Positions 3,541-64,000 of a stretch of 64,000 bases of DNA are shown in pieces (the first letter of the stretch is position 1; each line of letters opens with the position of its first letter). Both the position numbers and the translations under genes were made by a program. Origin of the DNA: Candidatus Hydrogenedentota bacterium (GTDB taxonomy: Bacteria; Hydrogenedentota; Hydrogenedentia; Hydrogenedentales; SLHB01). The DNA is taken from NCBI GenBank assembly GCA_963745075.1, contig CAVUWV010000031.1, positions 283,209 through 347,208 of the forward strand. Direction: 5' to 3'. Below the pieces are notes generated by a model. That model worked only from the letters and a program-made list of their open reading frames with translations. It was not told the DNA's origin and searched no databases.

Positions 3541-3668
3541 GGTGTGGTACTTGACCTCAAAAGGAACCCTCCCGATCATTGCGACAGGAAGGCTACATGC
3601 TGACAGAACCCGCCCCCTGACTCAAGAACTGATTTGGCCGAAACTGCGCTGGGCTGATTCCTGTCGAG

Positions 3669-39463: not shown

Positions 39464-39516
39464 GTGCAACTCGCCACGATTGGGATGTATTCTTGGAACG
39501 GTGGCGGAATCCGAAG

Positions 39517-39901
39517 AACATCCCCCTTGATCCCCCTTCAAAGGGGGAACGGTCGCAACGCATCGCGTTGCGATGAAGGCAGGCGTCAAGGTAGATTCGA
39601 AGCCGTTCACAAAGGGCGTACCGACGAACAGTCTTGCGGGAAGCTCCCCCCTTTGAAGACGGAACCGACAAAAGTCGACGCTTCGATTTGTGCACAGGAA
39701 GAGGAATGCGAAACGAACCGAGAACCTGCACAACTCCGAGGGATACGGCTTGGCCGCTCCCCCTTCAAAGGGGGAAGCTTCACACAACGCTTTGCGTTGT
39801 GACAGGACGGGCAAGGACGTTGAACGTGGGCCAGAACGACTGTCCCGGCCGAGTAATTGCTTGGGTCATTCCCCCTTTGAAGGGGGATAAAAGGGGATGT
39901 T
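39517..39901. repeat. Cluster of four REP/MITE-like units (CCCCCTTCAAAGGGGG family) in alternating orientation
   Basis: Units at 39517-39549, 39641-39658, 39758-39780 and 39869-39901; the first 33 nt are identical to 59248-59280. Confidence 0.85.
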
Positions 39902-40703: not shown

Positions 40704-41612
40704 TTACTCTTCGTCCCTTGTAAGCCAGAACCGCATGGTCTTCGACACGATATCCGCCGCATCGTGATGGACCCAATGCCCGGCCCCCGGCACGGTGACC
40801 AAAGTCAAGTCCTTTTCCAGCCATTCCCAAGTACGATTCAGCATGGCGTGGCTCAAGGCCCGATCCTCCAAACCGTGAAACATCAACACGGGCAACGTCA
40901 CCTTGACCACCGGCGACGTGTTTTCCCGGTAGGGCTCGTACGGATAGTTCATCTTGTAGTACGCTAGCATGGCTTCGAAATCGGACTGCCGGAAGGCTTC
41001 CAAGTAACGCGCCTTGACGGTGTCATGCTCGTTTGGTGCGACCAGGGCAACCAGGGCTTCCGCCGTCAACATGGACGCGGCGTCCGGCCTCTGGAAGTCG
41101 CGGGCGTACTGGCTGTTTTTCTGCTGGTCCTCGTTGTGGGCCAACTCCCGCATGAACCCCCGGGGATGGGGCAGATTACAGATGACCAGCCGCTCGGTCA
41201 TCTCGGGATGGGCCATCGCAAACATCCACGCGATCGCACCGCCCCAGTCGTGTCCGACGATGGTGGCTTTGGACTGCCCGAAATGTCGAATCACGGCTTC
41301 CACATCGGCAACAAGGTGCGGTGCTGCGTACTGTTCGACGCCCTCCGGTTTGTCGCTCTGGTTGTACCCCCGCAAATCGATGGCGACGACGTGAAACCGG
41401 TCCGCCACGGCGGCCATCTGGTGGCGCCAACTGTACCAGAAGTCGGGAAACCCGTGAATCATAGCCACCAGTGGCCCGTCGCCAAGAGACACATAGTGAA
41501 TGCGCACGCCGTTGTTTTCAGCATAGCCGTGGGTTGCGCGGTCAAAAACGTCGTCCGAACCATTTGCATCCGTCAAACTGAAACAGGAAGTGAGTGCAGC
41601 AAACATGGCCAT
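40704..41612 (-). CDS. Alpha/beta hydrolase, epoxide hydrolase-like
   Basis: [27 protein letters not shown] (Asp nucleophile), GHWVH. Confidence 0.88.
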
Positions 41613-44732: not shown

Positions 44733-45509
44733 CTACGACGCCCACAAGAACTGGCGCAGGTCATACCCTTTCCCCCGGACCGCCAACGCCGACGCATACG
44801 CCGGCTCCGTCTCCAGGGCAAACATGGACCACCGCGCGGCTTCGCCGGCGTCACCCTGTGTAGCCAACAACTCCGCAGGCTCTCCGGGCTTGAGCGACAC
44901 GTCGAAGGCGTCCAGTGGAAAGGACAGTCCCTCACCGCGCGCCTTGATGTACGCCTCCTTGCGCGTCCAGCAGTTCAAAAATCCCTGCTCGCGCTGGTCC
45001 TTGGGAAGCGTGCGCAAGGTATAAGCCTCCCGGGGAGAAAAGAACCGTTCGGCGATTCGCTGCCCCGCAAAATCCGGCCGATGTTTTTCGATGTCGATTC
45101 CCACGTCGCGATCCAGCACCATGGCATACACGGCAAGCCGGCCCGAGTGCGCCAGATTGAACCGGAGCGGCGGATCGTCGGAAGTATGTGCCAGAAAGGG
45201 CTTCCCGTGAGAACTGTAGGTAAAGGCAAGCAGGGCCGGCTCAACGTCGAGGTATCGCCCCAGGATGTTCCGCAAAATGCCGCGGCCAACGATGTAGTTC
45301 TCACGCCCCCCGGGGAAATGAAAGCGGCCGGCCCGTTCCCGTTCCTCGCCGCTGAGCGTTTCCCACAACGCTTCCACCACGGGTGCGGACTGATCCAACC
45401 GGGACCTCCAGACGTGCACCTCGCCGGTTGGCAGGCGCAGATTTGCCGGGGGCTCGGACCAGGTCGTGTCGTGTTCGCGATGTGTCATGCCGGCGCGTGC
45501 TCCATCCAT
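44733..45509 (-). CDS. Sfp/HetI-type 4'-phosphopantetheinyl transferase
   Basis: HGKPFL, FNLAHS, VGIDIE, WTRKEAYIKARGEGL. Confidence 0.95.
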   Translation of the reverse strand: MDGARAGMTHREHDTTWSEPPANLRLPTGEVHVWRSRLDQSAPVVEALWETLSGEERERAGRFHFPGGRENYIVGRGILRNILGRYLDVEPALLAFTYSSHGKPFLAHTSDDPPLRFNLAHSGRLAVYAMVLDRDVGIDIEKHRPDFAGQRIAERFFSPREAYTLRTLPKDQREQGFLNCWTRKEAYIKARGEGLSFPLDAFDVSLKPGEPAELLATQGDAGEAARWSMFALETEPAYASALAVRGKGYDLRQFLWAS

Positions 45510-45570
45510 CGTTCATTCTGAGGATGCTCGAGGAAGGAATCAATGATTGGAATGCAACCGGCACGACGGA

Positions 45571-48500
45571 TCACGCGTCGCCTTGGGGTTCGTATTCCAC
45601 GCGAGCCCGTTCCAGGCAGCTTTTCAGGGTCGTGCCGACCGTTTCGATGTAGGGCTTGATCAACATTACAGCGTGATTGCCGGGCACGGTGATGACTTCA
45701 AGCCCACCGTCCGCCACTTCGCCCCATCCAAGGGTTGGATCGTCGTGGAGCTTGTGCATGACGGACTGATCCTCCGCGCGCAGCAAGGAGATCTTGCCCG
45801 AATACGACTCGGGGATGTATTTGAGCAAGACTTTCCAATTGGCCTTCAACACCTTCATCGCGCGGCGCGTGGACGGCTGCTGGACGAGCAACAACCGCGA
45901 ATCGCGGGAAACCACGTTCGCAATGTCGGCGCGTTTCAGCAGTAGGTGGCGGATCGCGTCGGCCCACGCCCACGTCACATATTCCCAGAGCGACGGCGCG
46001 TTCTTGCCGCTGCGCCGCCTCTTGAGGGCCGACGGCAGAATGAGGTAGATCCCGTCGCGGATGTATGGGCCGGTGTGCCGAACCACGTCGAAACACATGA
46101 TGAGTTGGTTCCAACTCCATTTCAGCCGCTCCCGCCAGCTTTGCGTTCGGAGCGACCCTACACGGGCTTCGGTATCCATGATGGCGAGCAAAGCGACGGT
46201 GTGCCCGGCCTTTGTCAACTGCTGCGCGACCTCGAAGGCCACCGCGCCGCCAAACGACCACCCACCCAGGTAATACGGCCCTTCCGGTTGAATGGCACGG
46301 ATCGCAGCAACGTGCTCCGAAGCCAACTCCTCCATCGTCTCGTAAGGTTCCTGCGTCGGGTTCAGACTCGGATCCTGCAACGCGTAGAAAGGCGTGTCAT
46401 CGCCGATATACTGCGGCAAATTGAAGTAGGTGTAGGCGATTCCGCCCGCCGGCGCTACGCAGAAGAAGGGTGCATGATCCCCCTTCGGTTGTACGCGAAT
46501 CACGTGCTGCACGGTCCGCGCTACGGAAGGCTCGCCACCCGAACCCAAGGTTTCCTCGACCGGCAAGGAGTATCCAAGTTCGGTAGCGACGCGCCGCGCA
46601 TACCCCCCGAGACGCCGCGGCAACCGAATTCGTTTCCACACGGTTCCCAGGGCCGGGTCGATGTCCTGGTGGTTCATGAAATTAGGGTCGCCCACGGGGG
46701 CCGACGCCGAGTGCACCCCATCGGTCATCCGTTTTCCTTCATACGGCTTGAGTACCGCCGGATCGAAGGGAATTTCGAGGAACGCGCAAAGCGCTTTCAT
46801 CGTCTCTTCGGGTTTGCTGACGAGATCCTCGTAGTGCACGAGGTGATGTTTCGACTTGAGCAGGGGCGAGAGGAAGTCGCGGATATTCGCGTTGCTGACC
46901 GACCACACATCCTCGCCGAGGGACATGGAATCGGTTTCACCCTCGCTCATGAGGCGTTCAAACCGGTTCCGCATGAAGGACTCGATGGCGGAATAGGGGT
47001 GCCGCGCAAGATGAATGTACTTGGCCCCGTCAAACAGCCGTTCGGCGTGTTCGAGCGTTTCGATGCTCGAACCGTACGACGGAGACTTATCGATCAACAG
47101 CCGGGGGGCCACCTTCTCCTGGAGCATGGCGTAGACCTTTTCCACCGGCGTGGCCTGTTCCACGAGGTTGTCCAGCAGTGCCTTTGCTTCCTCCGCCGTC
47201 AACCCGTTCACCTCCATGAAGGCGCGCTGCAATCCTTCGCCGAGGTACGATTTTCCCAGGTCTTCGCTCCACTCGCGCATAGTGTTGAATTGCAGCAGGT
47301 GCAGTTCCGGCGGACAGAACAAGCCGGGATGGCCGGCCAGCATGACGCGGAGCAACGTCGACCCGCAGCGCGGGCCGGACAGCAAGAATGCAATTGGCTT
47401 GTTCTTCACGGCGGGGATCGTCGTCCGCAGACGCCGCCGGGCCGTCAGAACGCCCGCACGACCCGCCGGTGATGCGGGCGCGGCCGGTTCAACAACCTCC
47501 GGCTTGTGGCTTGCCATTTCTTTAGCAAGGTATGGCGCCAAATCCTGGATCGTCGGCCGCTCGAACACTTCTTTCGGGAACAGCTTCAATCCCAAATCGC
47601 GTTCGATACTGTTCAACACTTCCATCATCATGATGGAATCCAGCCCCAACTCGATAAAATTGCGATCGAGCGGAATAGTGTCTTCGTCACGATACAAGAC
47701 TTTGGCGAGTTCGCGACGCACGTATGCTTCGAGTTCTTCCGGGTGCGCGGACGGCGCGTGCGGTGGTTCAACCGTCGTTGGAGAGCCGTTTCCGGATTGT
47801 TTCTTCATCAAATCCGACAATGCGGGCAACCGGCTCAACATGGGCATCTGAGACCCCAGCCGGTCCCAATCCGCGTTCATGACGCCGACTTGCGCGGAAT
47901 CCGCACGCACGAGACATTCGAGCACGGCGAGGCCGTCTGCCGGCGGAATGCTTTGAATACCGGCTTGGGCCATCCGGTCCCCAGCCGAAGATGCCGCCGC
48001 CATGCCAACCTCCGCCCAAGGGCCCCAGTTGATGCACAGCGCGGATTGGCCCTTTGCATGCCGGTAGTGGGCAAGGCTGTCCATAAACGCGTTGGCGGCC
48101 GCATAATTCGCCTGCCCCGGCGAACCCATCATGGACGCGGCCGACGAGAACAGGATAAAGAAGTCGAGATCGCCGGCGCCCGTTCCGTTGAATGCACGAT
48201 GCAGGTGCCAACTTCCGTTGACTTTCGGCCGAAATACCTGGGTCAAGGCGTTGGCATCCATCTGCATCACGGCATGGTCGTCCAAAACGCCGGCCGCATG
48301 CACGACGCCTCGAATGGGCGGACGCCCCGCATTCCGGTATTCGTCTACAAACCGGCTCAGTTGATCGCCGTCGGCCACGTCCACCGATGCGACCTCCAGA
48401 TCGACGCCGCACGCTTCAAGCTCACGCAAAGCGCCAATGCGCTTGGCCACGGCCGATCCCGGTTCGACCGCGTCCCATTCCTGCCGCGGGGGCAGCGGCG

Positions 48501-51500
48501 TGCGGGAAAGCAGGATCAGGCGGCCGGCGCCGTTGCGCGCGAGCCACCGGCCAACTTCCAACCCCAGCCCGCCGAGTCCGCCGGTCACCAAGTACGCGCC
48601 ATCGCGCTTGCACTGAAATGCTTCCGAAGATTGCAGGCACGATTCGGACTCGACAAGCGACGCCGCAGATTGCAGACGCGCAACAAATCGTTGGCCGGCG
48701 CGGTAAGCGACCTGATCCTCGGCATCGGGGGAAAGGATTTCCGTTGCCAGCGCTCGGCAATTATCCGCCAAAGTAGCCTTATCCACGTCGACGATGCCAC
48801 CCCAGAGGTCACTGTGTTCGACGGCGAGGCACCGGCCGAAACCCCAGACCGGGGCCTGCATGGGAGGCGCACTCGCATCGCCGGTCCCTATTACTTGCGC
48901 GCCGCATGTTAGGAACCACAGTTGCCGCGCCGCGTCGGGTCGCCGCGCTGATTTTGTCCGGGACCCATACAGTGCCTTGGCAAGATGAAGCGCCGACGCG
49001 CACCCCAATTGCCGGGCGCGATCCAGATCGGCCGTCGACGCTTCTTCTGCGAAGGTGGCATCGGCACTCCAACAATGAATCACACGGTGCAGGGAACCGG
49101 CGAAGTCCGCGACAAGCGTTTCGTAATCGGCAGCCCGATCCGAATTCACCGTGGCGTGAGTATCGTCGACGCGGTCATACGCATCACCGTGCATAACACG
49201 GACACATCGATGCCCGAGAGCCTCAAGCTGTTGCGCCAACGTTTCGCCGGCCCCGGCCTCGTCCACGAACACCAGACATTGCAATGCAGCAGGCGCGGTT
49301 TTTGCCTCGGTACGCGATTTATCGACCCACTTCAACTGGTACAACCATTCGCTTAGACCGTTCAGACGCGCTGCGGAGTGTTCGGCAGGTTGGGCGACTG
49401 ACGCCGGAATAAGTTTTGCCGCAGGCATCGTCTTCCGCGCGGCAGGCGTCACATCCAGCCAATGGCGCTCCCGTTCAAAAGGGTACGTCGGCAGGTTCAC
49501 TCGATTCCGTACATAAGGCCCGTCAAAACCGCGCCAGTCTACCGGCACGCCACTTATAGACAGTTTCTGCAGGCTGCCCAGAACAACGGTCCAATCGTCT
49601 TTTCCCTTGGACAGGGACGGCAGCCAGACCGCCGCACCGCGGGGCAGGCATCGCGCACCCATCCCTGAGAGTACGGGCGCGGGACCCGACTCCAGGAACA
49701 GCGCATAGCCCGCCTCGTGCAGCGCGCGGATGCCCGCGTCAAATTGCACGGCCTGACGCAGATGTGCGCGCCAGTAGGCGGCGTCGAATACATCACCCTC
49801 GGTCACGAGCCTGCCAGTCAGGTTGGATACGACGGGAATCCGGGGCCCGCGGTACTGAACCTTGCGGGCCGCCGCCTCGAAATCCTCCAGCATAGGCTCC
49901 ATCAACGGCGAATGAAACGCGTGGGAGACGGTGAGGCGTTTGCAGGTAATCTTCTGCGCTTCGAACTGCTGTACCATCGCGTCGACCGCTTCCGCGTCGC
50001 CCGAGATCACCGTGTTCTTAGGACCGTTGGCCGCAGCGATGGAGACGCGGTCTGCGTGGCCGGTAAGCGCTTCCGCTACGGTGTCGCGGTCGGTCAATAC
50101 CGCCACCATGGCGCCGCCTTCCGGCAGGGCGCCCATGAGGCGGGCTCGCTCGGCAATCAGTTTCAACCCTTCTTCCAGATCGAAAACCCCCGCGACGCAC
50201 GCGGCCACGTACTCGCCGACGCTGTGCCCCATGACGGCGTCCGGTTCGATGCCCCACGACCGCCAGAGTTCGGCCAATGCGTATTCAATCGCGAAAAGCG
50301 CGGGTTGCGTGTAGGAGGTTTCATCGATGGGCGATTCGACGCCTTCTTCGGGATACAGCACGGACAACAACGGTTGTTCGCGAAGATCGCGAAGAATCGC
50401 ATCGCACCGGTCGAGGGCTTCACGGAACACGGGTTGGGTTTCGTACAACATGCGCCCCATGCCGACGTACTGCGAGCCTTGACCCGTAAACAGAAAGGCC
50501 ACCTTCGGCCGTACGCCGCGCCGTACCGCGCCGGCAGCACTGCGATCGCTGTTCTCTCCTGCGCAATAGGATTGCAGCGCTTCGATTAGTTCCATCGCTG
50601 AATTCCCGCGAGCAGCGAGCCGGTGTTCGAACAATGCACGGCACGTGTTGGCGGTGAAACAAACGTCGGCGGCTTCGGAAGCATCTTCGCCGCTTAGGCG
50701 CGCCGCATAACGCTCCGCCAAACGCGTTAACGCGGCCTCCGTGTGGGCTGACAACGTCAGCGCATGCTGCGGCCGTTCTCGAGGCGAGTCGATCGCCGGA
50801 ACATTGGCCGGCGCCTCTTCCAGAATGACGTGGGAATTCGCGCCGCCGAATCCAAACGAACTCACGCCCGCGCGACGTGGCACTTCGCGCTTGTCCCACG
50901 CTTTTCCACGAGTAACGATTTCGATGGGCGTGTCGTCCAGCTCGATGAGGGGATTTACTTCGTTGAGATGCAAATGCGGCACAAACGCGCCGTGATGGAG
51001 CATAAGCGCGGTTTTGATCAGCCCGGCCACCCCGGCCGCCGACTCCAAATGTCCGATGTTCGTCTTTGCCGACCCGAGGTACAACGTCTGGTTCGAACCG
51101 CGTCCTTCGAGAAGAACGGCTTTCAGCGAATCGACCTCGATGGGATCGCCCAGGGCCGTGCCGGTTCCGTGCGCTTCCACGTAATCGATATCCGGCGGTG
51201 ACAGGCCCGCGTTCGCTAACGCCTGACGAATGACCGCCTGTTGGGCCTGCCCGTTTGGCGCAGTCAGGCCGTTGCTGCGGCCGTCGTGATTGACCGCGCA
51301 ACCACGGATAACGGCATAGATGCGGTCACCATCGGCCTGGGCGGCAGAGAGCCGTTTCAACACCACCACGCCGCAGCCTTCACCGCGCACGTAACCGTCG
51401 GCACTCGCATCGAAGGTCTTACACCGGCCGTCCGGCGACATCATCCGGGCGTGGGAAAATATCATTTGAATTTCGGGAGAGAGAATGACGTTTACACCGC

Positions 51501-52368
51501 CCGCGAGCGCCAGCGTGCATTCATCGTCGCGCAAGCTGCGGACGGCCTGATGCACGGCGACGAGGGAAGACGAGCACGCCGTATCCACCGCGATGCTCGG
51601 GCCGCGCACATCCAGAAAATAGGAGAGCCGGTTTGCGGCCAGACTGTGGGCGTTGCCGGTCCCCGCGTAGGCGTCAATCAAATCGGGGTCGTTACATTGC
51701 AGGCGGGCGTAGTCGTTCGCGCTGATCCCCATGAACACGCCGGTCGGGCTGCCGCCCAAGGTGTCGGGCGGAATGTTCGCGTTTTCCAGCGCCTCCCACG
51801 CCACCTCCATGACCAACCGCTGCTGCGGGTCCATGCGCGCCGCTTCGCGCGGGGAAATACCGAAGAACCCGGCATCGAACCGGTCGATGTGGTCCAGGAA
51901 ACCGCCCTTGCGGGTATACATCTTGCCGATGGTCGCGGGAAACGGATCGTAATACGCATCGTTGTCCCAGCGATCCGCCGGAACGTCGGCGACCGCGTCT
52001 TTCCCTTGGGCGAGCAACGTCCAGAACGCTTCCGGACTATCCGCGCCGGGAAACCGGCAACCGATTCCGACGATGGCAACCGGTTCGTCCGGATTGGCAT
52101 CGGCAGAACGAACTTCGGTCTCGGAAGCGTCGGTGTCTGCCGCGAGGTATCCCGCGAGCGCTTCGATGCTCGGGTATTCCCAAAGAAGCGTTGGAGAAAG
52201 CTTGCGGTCGAGCCAGTCTTCCAAATCGCCGGATAGCGTCACCGCTTCGCGCGACGAAACGCCGAGACCGTCAAAAGAGCCATGGGGATCGATATCTTCC
52301 GCGGGCACACCGAGTTCTTCGGCCAAATGCGCGATGAGCCATTCCTGAATGGCCTGTTTCGTCTTCAC
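45571..52368 (-). CDS. Type I polyketide synthase ACP-KS-AT-KR-ACP-sulfotransferase-thioesterase (CurM/Ols-like architecture)
   Basis: ACP GVSS; KS DTACSSS, HGTGT, NIGHLE; AT GHSVG, HAFHS; KR GGLGGLG, HAAGVLDD, YAAAN; ACP GLDS; ST PRCGSTLLRVMLAGH, PPELHLL, DKSPSY, GDPNF; TE GWSFG, MDT, PGNH. Confidence 0.95.
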   Translation of the reverse strand: MKTKQAIQEWLIAHLAEELGVPAEDIDPHGSFDGLGVSSREAVTLSGDLEDWLDRKLSPTLLWEYPSIEALAGYLAADTDASETEVRSADANPDEPVAIVGIGCRFPGADSPEAFWTLLAQGKDAVADVPADRWDNDAYYDPFPATIGKMYTRKGGFLDHIDRFDAGFFGISPREAARMDPQQRLVMEVAWEALENANIPPDTLGGSPTGVFMGISANDYARLQCNDPDLIDAYAGTGNAHSLAANRLSYFLDVRGPSIAVDTACSSSLVAVHQAVRSLRDDECTLALAGGVNVILSPEIQMIFSHARMMSPDGRCKTFDASADGYVRGEGCGVVVLKRLSAAQADGDRIYAVIRGCAVNHDGRSNGLTAPNGQAQQAVIRQALANAGLSPPDIDYVEAHGTGTALGDPIEVDSLKAVLLEGRGSNQTLYLGSAKTNIGHLESAAGVAGLIKTALMLHHGAFVPHLHLNEVNPLIELDDTPIEIVTRGKAWDKREVPRRAGVSSFGFGGANSHVILEEAPANVPAIDSPRERPQHALTLSAHTEAALTRLAERYAARLSGEDASEAADVCFTANTCRALFEHRLAARGNSAMELIEALQSYCAGENSDRSAAGAVRRGVRPKVAFLFTGQGSQYVGMGRMLYETQPVFREALDRCDAILRDLREQPLLSVLYPEEGVESPIDETSYTQPALFAIEYALAELWRSWGIEPDAVMGHSVGEYVAACVAGVFDLEEGLKLIAERARLMGALPEGGAMVAVLTDRDTVAEALTGHADRVSIAAANGPKNTVISGDAEAVDAMVQQFEAQKITCKRLTVSHAFHSPLMEPMLEDFEAAARKVQYRGPRIPVVSNLTGRLVTEGDVFDAAYWRAHLRQAVQFDAGIRALHEAGYALFLESGPAPVLSGMGARCLPRGAAVWLPSLSKGKDDWTVVLGSLQKLSISGVPVDWRGFDGPYVRNRVNLPTYPFERERHWLDVTPAARKTMPAAKLIPASVAQPAEHSAARLNGLSEWLYQLKWVDKSRTEAKTAPAALQCLVFVDEAGAGETLAQQLEALGHRCVRVMHGDAYDRVDDTHATVNSDRAADYETLVADFAGSLHRVIHCWSADATFAEEASTADLDRARQLGCASALHLAKALYGSRTKSARRPDAARQLWFLTCGAQVIGTGDASAPPMQAPVWGFGRCLAVEHSDLWGGIVDVDKATLADNCRALATEILSPDAEDQVAYRAGQRFVARLQSAASLVESESCLQSSEAFQCKRDGAYLVTGGLGGLGLEVGRWLARNGAGRLILLSRTPLPPRQEWDAVEPGSAVAKRIGALRELEACGVDLEVASVDVADGDQLSRFVDEYRNAGRPPIRGVVHAAGVLDDHAVMQMDANALTQVFRPKVNGSWHLHRAFNGTGAGDLDFFILFSSAASMMGSPGQANYAAANAFMDSLAHYRHAKGQSALCINWGPWAEVGMAAASSAGDRMAQAGIQSIPPADGLAVLECLVRADSAQVGVMNADWDRLGSQMPMLSRLPALSDLMKKQSGNGSPTTVEPPHAPSAHPEELEAYVRRELAKVLYRDEDTIPLDRNFIELGLDSIMMMEVLNSIERDLGLKLFPKEVFERPTIQDLAPYLAKEMASHKPEVVEPAAPASPAGRAGVLTARRRLRTTIPAVKNKPIAFLLSGPRCGSTLLRVMLAGHPGLFCPPELHLLQFNTMREWSEDLGKSYLGEGLQRAFMEVNGLTAEEAKALLDNLVEQATPVEKVYAMLQEKVAPRLLIDKSPSYGSSIETLEHAERLFDGAKYIHLARHPYSAIESFMRNRFERLMSEGETDSMSLGEDVWSVSNANIRDFLSPLLKSKHHLVHYEDLVSKPEETMKALCAFLEIPFDPAVLKPYEGKRMTDGVHSASAPVGDPNFMNHQDIDPALGTVWKRIRLPRRLGGYARRVATELGYSLPVEETLGSGGEPSVARTVQHVIRVQPKGDHAPFFCVAPAGGIAYTYFNLPQYIGDDTPFYALQDPSLNPTQEPYETMEELASEHVAAIRAIQPEGPYYLGGWSFGGAVAFEVAQQLTKAGHTVALLAIMDTEARVGSLRTQSWRERLKWSWNQLIMCFDVVRHTGPYIRDGIYLILPSALKRRRSGKNAPSLWEYVTWAWADAIRHLLLKRADIANVVSRDSRLLLVQQPSTRRAMKVLKANWKVLLKYIPESYSGKISLLRAEDQSVMHKLHDDPTLGWGEVADGGLEVITVPGNHAVMLIKPYIETVGTTLKSCLERARVEYEPQGDA

Positions 52369-52448
52369 GTGAACTTCTTCTCCACCACTTTCAAATCGAG
52401 AGGGCACGAACTTCGCGTGCGATTCGTGTCTGTTGCGCCACCAGAGCT

Positions 52449-54242
52449 TCAGCCGGTGGTCAGTACTTCCAACGTATTGGTCAAGAAACGTTTGCGGTTG
52501 GCTCGCCGCTGAATCTTGCCGCTGCTGGTTTTGTCAATCGTCCGGGGGGCGATCAGGCAAACCCGATGCACCCGAAGATCGTGATTCTCGGCGATCGCCC
52601 GGCGCACCGCCGATATGACGTCTTTGCCGTCACCGTCTTGGGGCAAAACGGCCTCCGCGATCACGGCAAGTTTCTCCTGACCGTCGATATCGAGCGAAAA
52701 TGCCGCGCAACATCCGGGGCGAATCGCCGAATGACTCCGTTCCACGGTATGCTCGATATCCTGCGGGTAGTGGTTCAACCCGTCGACAATAATCATATCC
52801 TTGATACGGCCCGTTACGAAAACGAACCCGTGCTTCACGAAACCCAGGTCACCCGTCCGCAAGAAGGGACCTTCGTCGGTGTCGGCGAGCCGCGCGTGAA
52901 ACGTTTCCTCGGTCTCCTCGGGGCGGTTCCAGTAGCCGTCGGCAACCGTGGTGCCGGACACCCAGATTTCGCCGACGGTATCCGGCGAACACTGGATGCA
53001 CGACTCGGGGTCGACGATGATCACGCGGGTGTCGTGGCAGGTTCGCCCGCACCCCACCAAGGTGCGCACGTCGTCGCCGGGTGCTTTCGCTTCGACGACG
53101 CGATGCCGCTCCAGTTCCGAGGCGACGACCGGCAACAACATCGGTTTCAGCTTTGCCGTCGTCGACACCATTAAGGTGGCTTCGGCCAAACCGTACCCGG
53201 GATGCAGCGCATCCCACCGAAATCCACAGGACCGGAACGTCTCCGCGAACCGCTCCAGCGTTTCCGGCCGAATGGGTTCCGCGCCGTTGCCCGCACTCCG
53301 CCAACTACCGAGGTCCAACGTCGCACGCTGTTCCGGTGTTATTTTGCGCGTACACAGGTCATACGCGAAGTTGGGCGCGCAACTGTGCGTTGCCTTGTAC
53401 CGGGAAATTGCCCGGAGCCAGCGCAACGGCCGCTGGAGAAACGCGAGCGGCGACATCATGTAGCACGTTGCGCCCAGATAGATCGGCAAGAGGAGGCCGA
53501 AGATAAGCCCCATGTCATGGAAGGCCGGCAGCCACGTCACAAAACGAAATTCGTCCTCCCTCTCCCACATGGCGCCCATGTTCAACATATTATAGAGCAG
53601 GTTGCGATGGGTCACCATCACGCCCTTGGGCTCCGAGGTCGATCCCGAAGTGTATTGAAGAAACGCAACAGTATCGGGCAAAACTTGCGGATCGTTCCAG
53701 GTCGTTGCCAGATCATTCGAGACCGTATCCGTGGCCAGCCATTCGAATTCGCCGAAGTACGAATCGTACGCGGCGAAACCCTTCTCCATTTCCAACAAGC
53801 AGGTCACGGTCAGGGCCAAGGTGGTACCTGCATCCCGCGCAACCACTTTGAGACGGGGGAGACTGCGATTCAGCCGGCCGGGGTCGGGCGGATACACGGG
53901 TACGGCGACGACACCGGCATACAGGCACCCAAAAAACGCCGCGACATAGTCCAGCCCCGGAGGATACAGCATCAACACACGGTCGCCGGGATTGCACCGT
54001 TCCAGCAATGCGACGGCAATGGCCCGGGCACGCCGGTCCACCGCGCCGAAGGTGTACCGGGCCCCTTCTTCCTCCCCGTCGTCCAGAAACGTATAGGCCA
54101 TGTGGTCGGGACGATGGAGCGCGCGATTCTGCAACAGTTCGACCAGCGTCTCACCATGCGCGGACCAAGTATCCATCTCGGGCGCAATCCCTGGTGAATC
54201 CATCTGAGGCCGGACACGGTCTGCCCGGATTTGTTGTGTCAT
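52449..54242 (-). CDS. Fatty acyl-AMP ligase (FAAL)
   Basis: AFLQYTSGSTSEPKGV, WLPAFHDMGLI, APNFAY, YGLAEATL, FAAL-type insertion before LVGCG, RTGDLG, GRIKD, KTSSGKIQR. Confidence 0.93.
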   Translation of the reverse strand: MTQQIRADRVRPQMDSPGIAPEMDTWSAHGETLVELLQNRALHRPDHMAYTFLDDGEEEGARYTFGAVDRRARAIAVALLERCNPGDRVLMLYPPGLDYVAAFFGCLYAGVVAVPVYPPDPGRLNRSLPRLKVVARDAGTTLALTVTCLLEMEKGFAAYDSYFGEFEWLATDTVSNDLATTWNDPQVLPDTVAFLQYTSGSTSEPKGVMVTHRNLLYNMLNMGAMWEREDEFRFVTWLPAFHDMGLIFGLLLPIYLGATCYMMSPLAFLQRPLRWLRAISRYKATHSCAPNFAYDLCTRKITPEQRATLDLGSWRSAGNGAEPIRPETLERFAETFRSCGFRWDALHPGYGLAEATLMVSTTAKLKPMLLPVVASELERHRVVEAKAPGDDVRTLVGCGRTCHDTRVIIVDPESCIQCSPDTVGEIWVSGTTVADGYWNRPEETEETFHARLADTDEGPFLRTGDLGFVKHGFVFVTGRIKDMIIVDGLNHYPQDIEHTVERSHSAIRPGCCAAFSLDIDGQEKLAVIAEAVLPQDGDGKDVISAVRRAIAENHDLRVHRVCLIAPRTIDKTSSGKIQRRANRKRFLTNTLEVLTTG

Positions 54243-56222: not shown

Positions 56223-57788
56223 CTACCGCTGGAGTCGCACCGGCGGAGCGGTTGCGGCGGGTGCACGCAACGGCTTAGGCATCGGCCGGGGCGCTGGGAT
56301 CGGGCGACCGAAGGACATCACGACGCGATACGTCACGACAGCCTCGCCGTCTTTCGGCACGTCGACCGTGAACACTGCAGTGCGGGCATCCTTCTTCACA
56401 AAATCCTGGGACTTCTCGCGGATGTCCCAATCGCCCGGCATCGGCTCGACGATATCCACGGTAACCGGTACCTCTTTGTGGTTGCGAATCTTGATCTCGT
56501 AGGCGGATTCAAAGACGTTGTCGGCGATTACCTGGTAGTCGGTTTGCGTGCGTTCGCCAACGATGTCAAAGGCGTTGCCGAGACGGAGCCGTACTTCTTC
56601 GTCTTTTGGCGTGTGCTTGATGCGATCCTCGCCCGCGAACTGGAGCATGCCTTCGGAATCTTCCTGGTAAACGCGCATGGTCCCCGCGGGCAACGGGATC
56701 CCGAGATGGTTCTTCTCTTCGTTCTGAAACACCAGGAACACACCGACGTTTTCGTGCGTCAAGGGCGCAATCTTCTGACTGTAATACGAACCGTTCCCGC
56801 GATACTCGTACGCTTTCTTCGCGGAAACGCCATCAGCCGTGAGCAGGCTGACTTGTTTGGATTGGTTTTGTTTTATCGTCGTACGCCGCGGCATGGAGTA
56901 CAGGTGGTACTCCGCGAAGGATTCCTCAACAGGAAGCGCTTTTCGTGCCATTGCCACCCCGCCTCCACCACCGAATCCGCCTCCACCCGCCTGTACGATA
57001 TTTACGTCGCCCGCGACGAGTTTCAGCTTCGCGTTGGTATACGTGGCACCGGATTGATTGTTCAGGGTGACCCACCCTTCGAGATCCAGCGACGCGTCGT
57101 CCTTGGCCAAGGTAATCACGTAATCGGCCTGCCAGGAAAGGCCGCCGGTGAGATAGGTCGCTTCGATGGTTTGATCCGTGCCTTGATTGTCGAGGAGCCA
57201 GATGAGCGACGGCCGCGCGATCAGGTTCTCCGGAATCTCCGGCAAGACAACCTGGCCGGGATAGCCGAGATAAATCTCGTCGCCCACTTTGTAGATGGGA
57301 CCTTCGTTGACACTCAGCAATTCGGCATCGGTCCGTCCCACGTTGATTTCGTTATTGAAGTTGACCAGCGATACCTGTTTGCCGACGTACTTCTCCATCA
57401 GTTTCGAGGGGCTGATGAGGTCGTATTCGTAGTTCTGCTCGAGGATTTGCAGGGTACCCGGCGCCGAAACTGACTTGAGGCTTACCGTTTCCGGCTGGAT
57501 TTGTTGAGCCACGTCGGCAAAACGCAGTTCCTGTTCACCCGGCAGGAGTTTGATGGCGCGCGTGTCTCGCACCAGGGCGAGATTGTTGTTGTATACGGTG
57601 ACGGCGACGTCTTTCTGATCGGCCAGGGTGGTCTCGGGGCCGATTCCCGCGGCTTTCAGCGGATCGCTGAGGGATAGCGAACTCACCCGTACGGTACGTG
57701 GTCCCGCGCTGATCTGTACGTTCTGCAACTCCGCAAAGGATACGGTTGCCGCAAGAACCGCCGCAAACCAAACTGCCATTCGTCTCAT
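56223..57788 (-). CDS. Secreted DUF4139/DUF4140 domain protein, paralog C
   Basis: Signal peptide; VTVYNNNLALVRD, EQNYEYDL, YLTGGLSWQADY, LKLVAGDVN, EYHLY, GIPLPAG. Confidence 0.85.
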   Translation of the reverse strand: MRRMAVWFAAVLAATVSFAELQNVQISAGPRTVRVSSLSLSDPLKAAGIGPETTLADQKDVAVTVYNNNLALVRDTRAIKLLPGEQELRFADVAQQIQPETVSLKSVSAPGTLQILEQNYEYDLISPSKLMEKYVGKQVSLVNFNNEINVGRTDAELLSVNEGPIYKVGDEIYLGYPGQVVLPEIPENLIARPSLIWLLDNQGTDQTIEATYLTGGLSWQADYVITLAKDDASLDLEGWVTLNNQSGATYTNAKLKLVAGDVNIVQAGGGGFGGGGGVAMARKALPVEESFAEYHLYSMPRRTTIKQNQSKQVSLLTADGVSAKKAYEYRGNGSYYSQKIAPLTHENVGVFLVFQNEEKNHLGIPLPAGTMRVYQEDSEGMLQFAGEDRIKHTPKDEEVRLRLGNAFDIVGERTQTDYQVIADNVFESAYEIKIRNHKEVPVTVDIVEPMPGDWDIREKSQDFVKKDARTAVFTVDVPKDGEAVVTYRVVMSFGRPIPAPRPMPKPLRAPAATAPPVRLQR

Positions 57789-57809
57789 GTTCGTGTTTCC
57801 TCCCAGCAT

Positions 57810-59252
57810 CTAATACTTCACGCGCACGCGGTACGACACGGTGACTTCACCGTCTTTCGCAACCGGCACCGAGAACACCGCCGTGTGTGCGTCCTTTTTG
57901 GTGAAATCGTGAGACTTGCTCAGAATCTCCCAGTCCGACGGCATGGGCTCCACAATATCGACAACAATGTCGCTCTCTTTGTGATTCCGAACGGTCACGT
58001 CAAAGGCCGCTTCAGACGTGTGGTACCCAAGTACTTGGAAATCAGTCTGGACCCTTTCGCCGATCACGTCAAACGCGTCGCCCATGCGCAGCGTAACGGT
58101 CTCGTCCTTGGGCGTGTGCTTGATGTTGTCTTCACCGGCGAACTGGAGCATCCCTTCGCTGTCTTCCTGGTAGATCCGCATGACGCCCGCCGGCAGGGGA
58201 ATCCCGAGGCCGTTGGCTTCTTCGTTTTCGAACTCCAAGAAGACGCCGACGTGCTCCTCGCCTGTCGGTGGAATCTGCTGGCTGTAGTAATTGACCTGGC
58301 CCCGGTATTCGTACTTCTTCGCACACTTGACGCCGCTGCCATTGAGCAACGCCAATTGCTTGGACTGGTTCTGCTTAATGGTGGTCCGCCGCGGCATGGT
58401 GTACAAGTGGTACTCGGCGAAGGCCTCCTCTTTCGGCATCGGTGGGGCCGCGGCAGGTCGTGCCGAAAAGTCCATAACCATGGCGACATCTCCCAGGACC
58501 GGTTGGACGACGTTAACGTCGCCCGCTACGAGCTTCAGCTTGGCGTTGGTGTATGTCGCGCCGGACTGGTTGTTCATGGTCACCCAGCCCGCCAGGTCCA
58601 GGGACTGGTCATCCTTCGCGAGCGTCACCACGTAGTCCGCTTTCCAGCTCACGCCATTGGTAAGGTAGGTCACTTCAAGCGTCTGGTCGGCCCGGTCGTT
58701 GGACAGCAGCCAGATCAACGACGGTTCGGCGATGAGGTTGTCCGGGATTTCCGGCAGCACGACATTGCCGGGATGCCCGAGGTAGATTTCCTTGCCGACC
58801 TTGTAGACCGGCCCTTCGTTCACGCTGAGCAACTTGGCGGGTGTGCGGCCCAGGTCGACCTGGTTGCTGAAGTTCTGGAGATAGACGTCCTTCCCGACGT
58901 ATTTCTCCATCAACTTCGAGGGACTGATCAGGTCGTATTCGTAGTTCTGTTCCAGAATCCCCACGGACCCCGGCGAGGACGCGGACTGCAGACTCACGGT
59001 CTCGGGCCGGATCTGCTGGGCCACGTCCATGAATTGGAGCGACAGTTCGCCCGTCGGCAGATGCACCTTACGCGTGTCGCGCACCAGGGCGAGACCGTTG
59101 TTGTACGCGGTAACGGCCACGTCGGTCTGATCGCCCAGGGACGTCTCGGCGCTACCCGTCTCCTGAGCGGTTGCGCCCGCCGCGAATAGAACGATCACAA
59201 GTGCCGCCGATACATGCCGACGCAAACGAGCGAGAAACTGGGGAAATAACAT
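57810..59252 (-). CDS. Secreted DUF4139/DUF4140 domain protein, paralog B (start uncertain)
   Basis: Same motif series; signal-like VSAALVIVLFAAGATA; the ORF extends upstream through the repeat element. Confidence 0.85.
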   Translation of the reverse strand: MLFPQFLARLRRHVSAALVIVLFAAGATAQETGSAETSLGDQTDVAVTAYNNGLALVRDTRKVHLPTGELSLQFMDVAQQIRPETVSLQSASSPGSVGILEQNYEYDLISPSKLMEKYVGKDVYLQNFSNQVDLGRTPAKLLSVNEGPVYKVGKEIYLGHPGNVVLPEIPDNLIAEPSLIWLLSNDRADQTLEVTYLTNGVSWKADYVVTLAKDDQSLDLAGWVTMNNQSGATYTNAKLKLVAGDVNVVQPVLGDVAMVMDFSARPAAAPPMPKEEAFAEYHLYTMPRRTTIKQNQSKQLALLNGSGVKCAKKYEYRGQVNYYSQQIPPTGEEHVGVFLEFENEEANGLGIPLPAGVMRIYQEDSEGMLQFAGEDNIKHTPKDETVTLRMGDAFDVIGERVQTDFQVLGYHTSEAAFDVTVRNHKESDIVVDIVEPMPSDWEILSKSHDFTKKDAHTAVFSVPVAKDGEVTVSYRVRVKY

Positions 59253-59411
59253 CCCCCTTGATCCCCCTTCAAAGGGGGAATTGACCGCAACGCTTCGCGT
59301 TGCGTGTTCGGCCGGAGCGAACTCGACTTTCGGGTATGCGTTAGCACAGTTTCGAGTGTATGCGGATAGGCAAGCTTCCCCCTTTGAAGGGGGATCAAGG
59401 GGGATGTTATT
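59245..59411. mobile_element. MITE/REPIN-like element with perfect 36-bp terminal inverted repeats
   Basis: AATAACATCCCCCTTGATCCCCCTTCAAAGGGGGAA (59245-59280) is the exact reverse complement of 59376-59411; same family as 39517-39901. Confidence 0.75.
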
Positions 59412-59498
59412 CCTCCGCCCCGGCGTTTTTGGGATGTATCCTTCATCGCGTTCGAGCGCATGCGTTGGCAACGGGTTCATGTGTCGTACACTCCCCGG

Positions 59499-60896
59499 TT
59501 AGAACGTCACGCGGACGCGGTAGGAGACCTTGGCCTCGCCGTCTTCCGGCACGGCCACGTGAAAGATCGCCGTACGCGCGTCTTTCTTCTCGTGTTTCTG
59601 TGACTCGCTCACCATCTCCCAGTCGCCGGGCATGGGTTCCACGATGTCGACGACGATGTCCTGTTCCTTATGGTTCCGGATGGAGATATCAAACGCGGCT
59701 TCGTGGGTATTGCTCCCGTAGACTTTGTAATCGGTCTGCACGCGTTCGCCGATGACATCGAAGGCGTCGCCCATGCGGAGCGTGACTGTTTCGTCTTTCG
59801 GCGTGTGCTTGATGTTGTCTTCACCGGCGAACTGGAGCATGCCCTCGCTGTCTTCCTGGTAGATCCGCATGACGCCCGCCGGCAGCGGGATACCGAGGCC
59901 GTTGGCTTCCTCGTTTTCGAATTTCAGGAACACGCCCACGTGCTCTTCACCCGTCGGTGGAACCTGCTGGCTGTAGTAATAGACCTGCCCGCGGTATTCG
60001 TACCTCTTCTCGCACTTCACGCCGTTGCCGTTGAGCAGCGCCAACTGCTTGGATTGGTTCTGTTTGATGGTCGTGCGCCGCGGCATCGTGTAAAGGTGGT
60101 ACTCGGCGAAGGATTCCTCCTGTGGCATGGGCATCGCGGCCGCAGCCTCCAGAACCATACGGCCTCGCTCCGTCCGTTGCGGTTGGTTACTCACCACATT
60201 CACATCGCCCGCCACCAGCTTCAGTTTCGCGTTCGTGTACGTTGCGCCGGACTGGTTGTTCATGGTCACCCAACCCGCCAGGTCGAGGGATTTGTCGTCC
60301 TTGGCCAGGGTGACGACGTAGTCCGCCTTCCAGCTCACCCCGTTGGTGAGATAGGTCACTTCCAGGGTCTGATTGGCCTGCGTGTTTTCGAGCTTCCAGA
60401 TCAGAGACGGTTTGGCGATAAGATTCTCGGGGATCTCCGGCAGCACGACGTTGCCCGGATGCCCGAGAAAGATCTCGTCGCCGACTTTGTACACAGGGCC
60501 TTCATTCATGCTGAGTAGCTCGGCCTCGACGCGCCCCATGTCGACCTGGTTGCTGAAGTTCTGCAGCCACACTTTCTTGCCCACGTACTTTTCCATCAAC
60601 TTCGACGGGCTGATGAGGTCGTATTCGTAGTTCTGTTCCAGAATGCCGACCGAGCCCGGCGCAGACGCGGATTGCAGACTGACCGTTTCGGGCCGGATCT
60701 GCTGGGCCACGTCCATAAATTGCAGGTCGAACTCGCCTTGCGGCAGGGAGAGCTTGCGCGTGTCGCGCACGAGGGCGAGCCCGTTGTTGTACGCCGTCAC
60801 GGCCACGTCGGTCTGGTCGTCGAGGCTCGTCGCCACGCCTTCCGCATTCGCCGCCACGGCACTCGCGGCGATCGCCAACATCATCATCCATTTCAT
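59499..60896 (-). CDS. Secreted DUF4139/DUF4140 domain protein, paralog A
   Basis: GGAGG RBS; signal peptide MKWMMMLAIAASAVAANA; same motif series. Confidence 0.87.
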   Translation of the reverse strand: MKWMMMLAIAASAVAANAEGVATSLDDQTDVAVTAYNNGLALVRDTRKLSLPQGEFDLQFMDVAQQIRPETVSLQSASAPGSVGILEQNYEYDLISPSKLMEKYVGKKVWLQNFSNQVDMGRVEAELLSMNEGPVYKVGDEIFLGHPGNVVLPEIPENLIAKPSLIWKLENTQANQTLEVTYLTNGVSWKADYVVTLAKDDKSLDLAGWVTMNNQSGATYTNAKLKLVAGDVNVVSNQPQRTERGRMVLEAAAAMPMPQEESFAEYHLYTMPRRTTIKQNQSKQLALLNGNGVKCEKRYEYRGQVYYYSQQVPPTGEEHVGVFLKFENEEANGLGIPLPAGVMRIYQEDSEGMLQFAGEDNIKHTPKDETVTLRMGDAFDVIGERVQTDYKVYGSNTHEAAFDISIRNHKEQDIVVDIVEPMPGDWEMVSESQKHEKKDARTAIFHVAVPEDGEAKVSYRVRVTF

Positions 60897-61013
60897 GGTC
60901 CGGTTCCTCCGGTTGAAAGCGTCCCTTGCACACCTGTGGACGAGCAAGCGGCTCATGTCCTGCGAGAACCTTAGACACTTCCCTGCGTGCCGGGTTCGAA
61001 TTCAGCGAATCGA

Positions 61014-62076: not shown

Positions 62077-62843
62077 ATGCGCAACCGCATCTTCCTGATC
62101 AGCCTCGCCATCCTCCTCTTCACCGCCATCGGCGCCGCGCCCCGCTACCTCGAAGAACTCCGCATCGGCGGCGGCTACAACGACCCCGTCAACGGTGGCG
62201 CCGACTTCGAATCCGACGGCGACATCCTCACCAACGGCGCCCTCACCGTCGAGGGACCCACCACCCTCGAAGACGATCTCCACGTGAATGGAAACGACAT
62301 CTTCACTACGGGGATACTCTTTACTTGAATCCGGCGGGGGCCGGCCGGCTCTTTGTCGGTGCGAACGTTACCCAATTGGAGAACGCTACGGCAGGCTGTG
62401 GTTCGTGAATACGGTTGGTAGCAACACTCACTTTAGATTCTTCATGCCCGACTCAACCGGATGCGAGCCAAGACTTCGGCTCCATCTGGTGCGACGTTGA
62501 CGATTCCACTGACGGTTCGGAGGACGCGACACTTCGATTTGCGTTGGTAAGAAACGGGACGTACGACTACGACGTATTCTCGGTAAACAGTGAAGGTGAC
62601 GGACATTTCGATGGCGGCGTTGCCGCAACCGGTGGCAAATTGGAATCTGGCGTGGACGGAGGATTTCGCGGTGTACTCGCGGCGACGCGCGGAACGGACG
62701 GTACCGAACCTGCCTGCATAGAACTTCAATCGAGGAACGGCACCGCATGGTACTTGTTTGTGGAGGACGACGGCACGGTTCGCATTCACAGTGCCTTACC
62801 CAGCAGCAATTCCGACGGCGCGATCGTCGGATTACAGAACTAG
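62077..62843 (+). CDS. Secreted hypothetical beta-rich protein (frameshifts near ~62312, ~62395, ~62465)
   Basis: AAGGA RBS; signal peptide MRNRIFLISLAILLFTAIGA; overlapping frames join into a Gly/Asp/Thr-rich protein ending WYLFVEDDGTVRIHSALPSSNSDGAIVGLQN. Confidence 0.6.
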
Positions 62844-62884
62844 ATGCCGTCACACGGTTTCGTTCTGGCTACCGACCCGCCAAC

Positions 62885-64000
62885 TCATTTAATTTCGGTG
62901 AGGAACCAGCTTCGCCAATCGACTGCAGCGGGGAATGTCAGAAAGTCTTCCTGGCCGCAGGTCGCATAGATGAGAACTTGGCCGCCTTCGTCGGTACGGA
63001 AGACGAGTTCGTTGGTGCGAAAGCGGTCGCTCCGGTCGAGCCGTAGGGCGGCGGCGGAAAGTTTGTGCATGGTATTGCCCACTTCGCACGCGGAAACCAC
63101 GACGGGGGCGTGGGCCCGGTTGGCAGCGGTAATGGTCAGGCGGTATTTGGTCCCGGGTTTCAATTGCACGGACGTACCGAAGCGGTCGAAGAACGATGAC
63201 GGCCCGGTGGGCTGATGCCAGGTTTGACGGACGCCGACCACGCCGTCTTCGAAGGTATACGGTTCGATCGTACTGTCGGTCTGGCCCGGCGGCGCGCCGG
63301 AGGCCGCGGCGTGGTGCCATGACGCGGGGACCACTGAATCGGACGGCCAGTCCTGGAACCCGGGGTTCGCGATAAGGTTTCCGGGGGGTTCTTCGGCGAT
63401 TGTGTCGCCCGCTTCCACCGAGCCGGTTACGGGCGTCTCGGAAAGGCGCGCGGCGATCTGCGCGGCATCGGGCAGATAGGGAGCCAGTTGCCGGGCGAAT
63501 AAGCTTGCCACGAGCGGCGCCGCTTCCGGCGTCACGTGGTCACCGTCGGCGTAAAGGCCGATGGTGATGGCGTCAGCGTCCGTGATGTCGAGCAGTGGAA
63601 CGTCATGGCGGGCAAGGTACGCATCCAACGCAGCATCGTACTGGAGGAGTCCGTCGGAACGCGGCACGCCGAAGGCGTCCCTGCGCCGTTTCCAACGCAC
63701 GAAGGCGAGCCGGGAACCGTACTGTGGGCAGCCTCGATAAGATGCGGCAAAAACGAGAGATCCACGCGTTCTGAAAAAACAAATGAAGCATCGGTTCGCC
63801 GGGCGGCATCGGCGTTTTGCTGGAGTTTAGTGAACAGGGCCTCGTCCATGTTCTTATCCTCAAACACGCGGAGGATTATATCGTCGATCGCCGCGCTGCC
63901 GCCGGCGCCGGTCAACCACCCGGCAACATCTTTCGCGCCGTTCACGAATTGATCTTTGTAGGTTGTCCGGTTCCGGTAGACGGGCAGATTGTCGTACAAA
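62885..64000 (-). CDS. 3' part of an SGNH/DltD-AlgJ-like protein with a C-terminal carbohydrate-binding-like domain (frameshift near ~63705)
   Basis: VPLLDIT...LYADGDHVT (DxxH); NLIANPGF..W and LKPGTKYRLT resemble CBM_4_9-type domains; 5' end lies outside the window. Confidence 0.55.

Follow-up and report, generated by a model that had tools for sequence, protein, structure and literature searches.

The 64,000-nucleotide stretch analysed here (the window) lies on contig CAVUWV010000031.1 of a Candidatus Hydrogenedentota bacterium and carries a chromosomal operon of three genes, which encode a stand-alone fatty acyl-AMP ligase (FAAL), a single-module polyketide synthase (PKS) and an Sfp/HetI-type phosphopantetheinyl transferase (PPTase). 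The PKS ends in a sulfotransferase (ST) and a thioesterase (TE). While the ST is predicted to be of the type found in the olefin synthase Ols and in CurM of curacin A, the TE is not, and instead resembles the terminal domains of non-ribosomal peptide synthetases (NRPSs). To our reading of the operon we give about an even chance of being right: it would load a fatty acid, extend it by two carbons, reduce and O-sulfate it, and release a sulfated fatty acid, the 3-sulfooxy acid. Given that the line ends in a TE unrelated to that of CurM, such a product would be likelier than an alkene.

In this proposed pathway, the PPTase would prime both acyl carrier proteins (ACPs), and the FAAL would adenylate a long-chain fatty acid and pass the acyl group to the loading ACP (ACP1). 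The ketosynthase (KS), together with the acyltransferase (AT), would extend the chain by one malonyl unit, the ketoreductase (KR) would turn the keto group into a 3-hydroxyl, giving 3-hydroxyacyl-ACP2, and the ST would move sulfate from 3′-phosphoadenosine-5′-phosphosulfate (PAPS) onto this hydroxyl on ACP2. The Ser-Asp-His TE would then hydrolyse the thioester and free an anionic, detergent-like 3-sulfooxy fatty acid, made up of the starter plus two carbons. We infer the steps through sulfation from what is known of Ols and CurM together with the intact domains, and hydrolysis with the sulfate kept from the TE family and the comparison of gene lines. A standard type I TE is expected to hydrolyse a substrate that has no internal nucleophile. 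The Ols route, for its part, is described as running through acyl-AMP, ACP1, malonyl extension, 3-hydroxyacyl-ACP2 and PAPS-dependent O-sulfation (PMC3903477, PMC11730487), and for an ST without its TE the Ols literature expects sulfated products (PMC11730487).

The reading turns on the last domain. The TE scores 97.9 bits against PF00975 (aa 1980-2092, E 1.3e-27; cut-off 26.4 bits), and its sequence matches in the PDB are thioesterases of NRPSs, of Pks13 and of fatty acid synthases. The CurM TE (3qit) is absent from the 51 PDB matches that phmmer returned for the window TE at E<=10; as a control, the CurM-type TE of P0045 matches 3qit at 1.5e-86, and blastp gave no meaningful alignment between this TE and that of the window. 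The Ser, the His and the HG motif are kept in all 66 CurM-type TEs examined, as is an Arg that corresponds to R205 of 3qit. When 45 ST-adjacent PF00975 TEs were scored with a profile made from these 66 sequences, none exceeded 12 bits, and the window TE has none of the CurM-type motifs (HGxLE, GHS[ML]G, the Glu acid and the Arg205 equivalent); its own Ser-Asp-His triad is invariant in 32 of 32 ST-adjacent TE rows. In an AlphaFold model of the TE (68 sequences; predicted local distance difference test score, pLDDT, 83.8), the catalytic Asp2078 sits after strand β6, which is also the place of the acid in standard NRPS TEs (PMC11298585). The closest folds are those of the NocB TE (6ojd; Z 27.3, rmsd 2.8, 215 aligned) and 7crn (Z 27.0), with AB3403 (4zxh; Z 26.7), EntF and the Pks13 TE (Z 25.8, rmsd 2.5, 209 aligned) also close. 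The window TE thus has its fold (Z 25-27) and the Ser-Asp-His triad, with the Asp after β6, in common with the NRPS terminal TEs and the Pks13 TE, but differs from them in standing directly behind an ST and in having a lid of 117 aa. The CurM TE 3qit is not among the fold matches listed for the model, which by itself excludes nothing, and the Atlas returned solely PF00975 clusters. In sequence and predicted structure, the TE is of the NRPS type and not the decarboxylating TE of CurM and Ols. The earlier note on this DNA had proposed decarboxylative release as a terminal alkene; decarboxylative chemistry belongs to the CurM-type TE, and with neither a 3qit match nor the CurM motifs present, that mechanism therefore fails at the last domain. 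Supply of a CurM-type TE in trans was considered and rejected: none was found in the genome itself (89.7% complete) or in the 135 genomes of the phylum, bar two weak matches at 32-36%.

By contrast, the domain preceding the TE fits the earlier prediction of a sulfotransferase at about 46560-47400: it matches Sulfotransfer_3 (E 3.9e-30) and the CurM ST (PDB 4gbm, E 1.8e-96; 4gox, E 2.3e-89), and is about 55% identical to the Ols ST. Its residues R1680, E1701, H1703 and K1774 are common to 34 of 34 CurM-type STs examined; R1680 would be the Arg of the PAPS loop and the other three the catalytic residues. The ST is thus assigned to the CurM/Ols type, with its predicted catalytic residues intact. 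Sorting the best 120 of 876 ST homologs by what comes after the ST, we found 65 with a CurM-type TE and 33 with a PF00975 TE, none of the 120 matching both TE queries; in the remaining 22, the ST is followed by a condensation (C) domain, by another ST or by no further domain. A first ST tree (FastTree, 113 of 155 rows) placed the window ST among ST-TE, ST-C and ST-end proteins with a support of 88. This group without CurM-type TEs was lost in an IQ-TREE subset, and we dropped the ST phylogeny as an argument for retention of the sulfate. A metagenome scan with P0044 found generic PKS loci, the matches listed stopping short of the ST.

The remainder of the operon is largely as first described. 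Its three genes are co-oriented minus-strand open reading frames (ORFs) free of internal stops and frameshifts, separated by gaps of 41 and 61 nt, and Pfam recovers the order ACP-KS-AT-KR-ACP-ST-TE with every domain above cut-off and the expected motifs in place, including HAFH in the AT and LDD in the KR, which also has its catalytic Tyr. HAFH marks a malonyl-type AT (PMC7327777). The FAAL matches Pfam AMP-binding at E 3.9e-73, and its best PDB matches are FAAL-type (7r7e-g, E ~1e-156; 3kxw; FadD32); the NCBIfam FAAL models score top, yet under their own cut-offs, and the match of the PPTase to NF042922 (E 7e-64) is likewise under its cut-off. A promoter and terminator scan of the locus gave a signal no better than chance. 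The sequencing runs listed include none of RNA, which carries no information on expression. Taken as predicted, these genes would form the self-contained lipid pathway that the earlier note had envisaged. The PPTase does lie in the operon but is probably not dedicated to it, as it is the sole Sfp-type blastp match within the genome and therefore probably also serves other PKS and NRPS lines. Likewise, the split between FAAL and loading ACP is present but not new, having been reported for the Ols of Cyanobacterium stanieri PCC 7202 (PMC11730487).

Among known systems, Ols of Picosynechococcus sp. PCC 7002 has the same order of FAAL, ACP, KS, AT, KR, ACP, ST and TE, and the locus differs from it in its PF00975 NRPS-type TE, its Hydrogenedentota host and the PPTase inside the operon. 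The CurM terminus of curacin A (ST 4gbm, TE 3qit) shares the KS-AT-KR-ACP-ST order and the ST family; here the differences are the missing 3qit match of the window TE and the make-up of the window line as a stand-alone, fatty-acid-primed single module. A non-cyanobacterial ST with a CurM-type TE is also known from HlaB of the haliamide pathway in Haliangium ochraceum, its TE being 37% identical to that of CurM (PMC6274090). The KS and ST phylogenies suggested in the earlier note were built. In a FastTree analysis, which dropped half of the CurM-type/Ols KS rows, a 23-row ST-TE clade (95) takes in the window KS, and a 14-row Ols clade (95) lies apart from it; joining the window ST to CurM/Ols is not rejected, as discussed below. 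In the corresponding FAAL tree (FastTree), the window FAAL lies outside a 25-row clade containing all 24 Ols FAALs. The idea of an Ols/CurM-like pathway hence survives for the domain order and the ST type and gives way at the TE: as far as sulfation, the operon is predicted to follow the Ols scheme, yet it is no Ols member, since the defining TE is absent. It is a real, conserved and uncharacterised operon, a variant of the known ST-TE design.

A second line of evidence comes from the relatives of the TE. The nearest of these appear to terminate lipopeptide lines of the form FAAL-PKS-ST-(C-A-PCP)n-TE (A, adenylation; PCP, peptidyl carrier protein), among which the window locus looks like the member with n=0. 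The best NRPS-terminal relative, P0123 of locus L052 (ACP-ST-C-A-PCP-TE, then a PPTase), is 46% identical, and further Hydrogenedentota FAAL-PKS-ST lines reach a terminal TE by way of one (L053), two (L054/L055) or three (L061) NRPS modules; a PPTase comes after the NRPS-extended line in two cases, L052 and L055. Because C1 would be turned into an amide in such lines, decarboxylation in the style of CurM should be impossible there. In a 53-row TE tree, a 44-row clade (Shimodaira-Hasegawa-like approximate likelihood-ratio test, SH-aLRT, 99) unites 32 ST-adjacent TEs with 6 PCP-adjacent/NRPS-terminal and 6 stand-alone ones. In a 32-row subset, from which 21 near-duplicates and long outliers were dropped, the branch of this mixed clade has no support; a single clade of ST-adjacent TEs is rejected there (approximately unbiased test, p-AU 0.011), while one that includes two stand-alone TEs is not (p-AU 0.068). 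The A1 profile search was dominated by A and PCP columns and uninformative. A functional parallel is sulfazecin, where SulN and the SulM TE likewise combine PAPS-dependent sulfation on a carrier with release by an NRPS-type TE and retention of the sulfate, and where an Arg of SulM is modelled at the sulfamate (PMC11298585). That system differs in sulfonating nitrogen in trans, with a Cys nucleophile, a shifted Asp and a β-lactam product, whereas the window line would O-sulfate an acyl chain in cis and has a Ser nucleophile.

The genome of the window holds further lines of this kind. A second ST line (G000:C24:127566-145755, L149) reads FAAL-ACP-KS-AT-KR-ACP-ST, after which come two or three NRPS modules and, at the end, a TE with a long lid; its first NRPS gene seems to shift frame twice, near 138140 and at 138670-138920, and is either broken or affected by an assembly error. 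There are also two NRPS genes (C18:312753-316817 and C27:122271-126461), each a single C-A-PCP-TE module with a related TE, and a 1087-aa FAAL fusion (C31:28292-31555), for the priming of which the window PPTase is the only Sfp-type match. At other sites the genome encodes three FAAL-like ligases, which score best as ordinary acyl-CoA ligases; a full OleABCD test was not part of this comparison.

The host is not cyanobacterial, as the earlier note had supposed: the closest named homologs are labelled Ca. Hydrogenedentota, and although the depositor of L031 labels it Nitrospiraceae, it has the same flanking genes at 80-94% identity. A full-length fused ST-TE is found in 14 of the 135 phylum genomes, that of the window included, namely in 5/6 genomes of its own genus, 5/5 of g11, 3/3 of g8 and, within family f5, a single one; in the sixth genome of its own genus (72% complete), the final TE residues lie at a contig end. 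Within contig reach, the operon is flanked in three f1 genera by yjeF/phzF/DUF4139 and HAD-apt-sigma genes. With this flanking order kept and the locus at 60-63% GC against 59.4% for the contig, recent horizontal transfer was rejected. Selection on the ST and TE is purifying: relative to L032, the ST has a dN/dS of 0.044, the TE core one of 0.019 and the lid one of 0.041, values that are rough because dS is saturated, and that of the lid climbs to 0.26-0.33 against more distant relatives. A decaying Ols relic was likewise rejected, as all catalytic motifs are intact and dN/dS is well below 1 in every domain. Finally, the supply of PAPS, which the earlier note had proposed to check, is provided for by genes for ATP sulfurylase (sat, C24) and APS kinase (cysC, C1).

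Several observations weigh against release of a free sulfated acid, most of them in favor of a convergent olefin synthase, which we consider rather unlikely but the foremost of the other outcomes. Here, an NRPS-type TE would have evolved decarboxylative sulfate elimination and would release an n+1 terminal alkene, with R2182 of the lid holding the sulfate and E2080 as helper acid; in g8, whose modules bear a methyltransferase, the alkene would be internal. All that lies upstream of the TE agrees with Ols, down to the rare FAAL/ACP split, and the surroundings of the operon have no conserved exporter or tailoring gene, so that the small locus would suit a membrane hydrocarbon. The ST trees, whose backbone lacks resolution, fail to separate the window ST from CurM/Ols and permit a sister relation: in a 45-row subset, a tree that joins it to the cyanobacterial CurM/Ols STs could not be rejected (p-AU 0.685), and this tree beats the free search by 10 log-likelihood units. 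In a set of 181 TEs at >=33% identity, obtained from 286 by dropping stand-alone and more distant rows, R2182 is present in 43/43 ST-adjacent TEs versus 64/138 others, and an acidic residue two positions after the catalytic Asp (E2080) in 39/43 versus 7/138. This enrichment could reflect an unusual chemistry, or no more than the binding of a substrate that bears sulfate. There is a precedent for the former in FosTE, where two added arginines gave a type I TE scaffold unusual chemistry (PMC12979598). Against an olefin speak the lack of sequence similarity between the window TE and the CurM TE, the frequency of R2182 in TEs that are not beside an ST, and the positions of KS and FAAL in the trees described above. 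Furthermore, neither association with the ST is significant over 6 independent pairs (median p 0.25 for R2182 and 1 for Asp+2), even if the R2182 contrasts run in the same direction in 3.5/6 pairs on average and never in the opposite one. An unlinked enzyme could also convert the free acid further.

The lid invites another interpretation, to which we give a small chance: being basic and rich in Trp, it may dock the TE to the membrane, where the 3-sulfooxy acyl chain would be passed to a lipid, sugar or amine acceptor to yield a sulfated complex lipid. The TE of Pks13, which is among the close folds, transfers its acyl chain to trehalose. With a net charge of +15 and 7 Trp, the window lid is longer than those of solved NRPS TEs (54-101 aa; PMC11298585), and 39/41 long ST-adjacent lids have a net charge of at least +8, but so do 68/92 long lids without an ST, making basic long lids common in the family. 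The model of the lid is of low confidence (pLDDT 50-71 across most of its length), and no gene for making or transporting an acceptor is conserved nearby. In 5/5 genomes of g11, the PKS is directly followed by an additional, stand-alone TE from this family, which would fit acyl transfer; this TE lies between PKS and PPTase and has its triad intact, the Arg kept and an Arg at Asp+2 (Table 1). Least probable, and in our view improbable, is the use of the sulfate as a leaving group without decarboxylation, either by elimination, at the thioester or acyl-enzyme stage, to a 2-enoic fatty acid or by closure of the released carboxylate to a β-lactone. In fostriecin biosynthesis, a 3-O-acyl leaving group is eliminated (PMC12979598), and the conserved E2080 could serve as a base, yet a dehydratase (DH) domain would be a cheaper route to the enoate. 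The β-lactone and β-lactam TEs ObiF1 and SulM have a Cys nucleophile and the Asp after strand β7 (PMC11298585), while the window TE has Ser2051 and its Asp after β6. An α/β hydrolase gene resembling epoxide hydrolases and dehalogenases (40704-41612, minus strand) belongs to the syntenic block of the operon in several relatives, and counts in favor of this reading; it is found in 38/135 genomes, mostly without an ST-TE, and in 12 of the 14 ST-TE genomes but not in the other 2. It reached no NCBIfam cut-off, and a role as dedicated partner is not supported. Between these outcomes, hydrolysis to the 3-sulfooxy fatty acid is the reading that we prefer.

Some homologs vary the module itself. In g8 (L048-L050; P0056, P0059), the module includes a C-methyltransferase, and the KR reads LKN or LRN where that of the window has LDD, which points to a 2-methyl product, perhaps of other stereochemistry. 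P0024 is a FAAL-ACP-ST-TE protein without KS, AT and KR, so that the hydroxyl for sulfation must derive from the starter or a separate enzyme, and P0305, P0292 and P0271 are FAAL-(ACP)-TE proteins with related TEs. P0035, P0036, P0062, P0068 and P0084 have modules with both an ST and a DH, the His and Asp motifs of the latter being present; a working DH would take away the hydroxyl that the ST needs.

Table 1. Coordinates of the operon, its domains and the additional thioesterases of g11 (window positions unless a locus is given)
Feature	Position	Strand	Remarks
FAAL, stand-alone fatty acyl-AMP ligase	52449-54242	-	ORF open to 54278; likely ATG 54242 behind ribosome-binding site GGAGAG
PKS, single module ACP-KS-AT-KR-ACP-ST-TE	45571-52407	-	2278 aa; likely start GTG 52368
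Loading ACP (aa 13-95)	52123-52371	-	PP-binding, 2 stretches; Ser in GVSSREA
KS (aa 108-481)	50803-52086	-	PF00109 E 1.8e-103; Cys-His-His motifs DTACSSS/EAHGTGT/NIGH intact
AT (aa 638-954)	49546-50496	-	GHSVG and HAFH, malonyl-type motif
KR catalytic subdomain (aa 1270-1466)	48010-48600	-	GGLGGLG, LDD (B-type), Y-AAAN with catalytic Tyr
Module ACP (aa 1562-1626)	47530-47724	-	PP-binding; Ser in LGLDSI
ST, predicted CurM/Ols-type (aa 1665-1955)	46543-47415	-	Pfam Sulfotransfer_3 aa 1673-1883, E 3.9e-30
TE, predicted NRPS-type type I, PF00975	45574-46512	-	triad S2051-D2078-H2245; motif GWSFG
TE lid, 117 aa	45820-46170	-	net charge +15, 7 Trp; contains E2080, R2182
PPTase, Sfp/HetI-type	44733-45509	-	PF01648 and PF22624; start may be ATG 45488
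Stand-alone TE of g11	L035:8383-9303		
Stand-alone TE of g11	L045:13598-14518		
Stand-alone TE of g11	L046:6381-7277		
Stand-alone TE of g11	L056:1761-2669		

Elsewhere in the window, three tandem DUF4139-like paralogs with DNA 63-81% alike occupy 56223-60956 on the minus strand. Dispersed G/C-run repeats of 33-36 nt with palindromic cores, similar to repetitive extragenic palindromic (REP) elements, occur at 39514-39901 and 59245-59408, and between sites separated by 19.5 kb they share 94-97% identity. A gene similar to FAD-binding succinate/fumarate reductases (1902-3579, minus strand) is divided into two overlapping ORFs that cover profile positions 1-171 and 183-414, possibly owing to a frameshift. 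The end of the window (62415-63999) holds short ORFs without recognised function, of which the 271-aa ORF at 62885-63700 matched no Pfam family.

In the literature searched, we found no title or abstract on the fusion of a CurM-type ST with a PF00975 TE, or on the Hydrogenedentota cluster, in a coverage that left aside the primary CurM papers, supplements and most subscription papers; nor did we find a bacterial pathway to a 3-sulfooxy fatty acid. A genomics study of the Hydrogenedentota, in the parts covered, mentions sulfotransferases for polysaccharides only (PMC10866078). The locus matters in several ways. To genome miners, a terminus of the ACP-ST-TE type signals a terminal alkene, and since 33 of the best 120 of 876 ST homologs end in an unrelated TE, this rule would often mislead. 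As a natural domain swap, the locus also probes the contribution that the CurM TE makes beyond sulfation. Should alkenes form after all, decarboxylating release would have evolved twice, giving olefin synthases a second, unrelated origin outside the cyanobacteria; if acyl transfer is true, the TE would be a membrane acyltransferase that builds a new class of sulfated bacterial lipid. If our preferred reading holds, a single operon of three genes would yield a 3-sulfooxy fatty acid, a natural lipid of the anionic surfactant type, and would provide a way into the lipids of a phylum that is uncultured.

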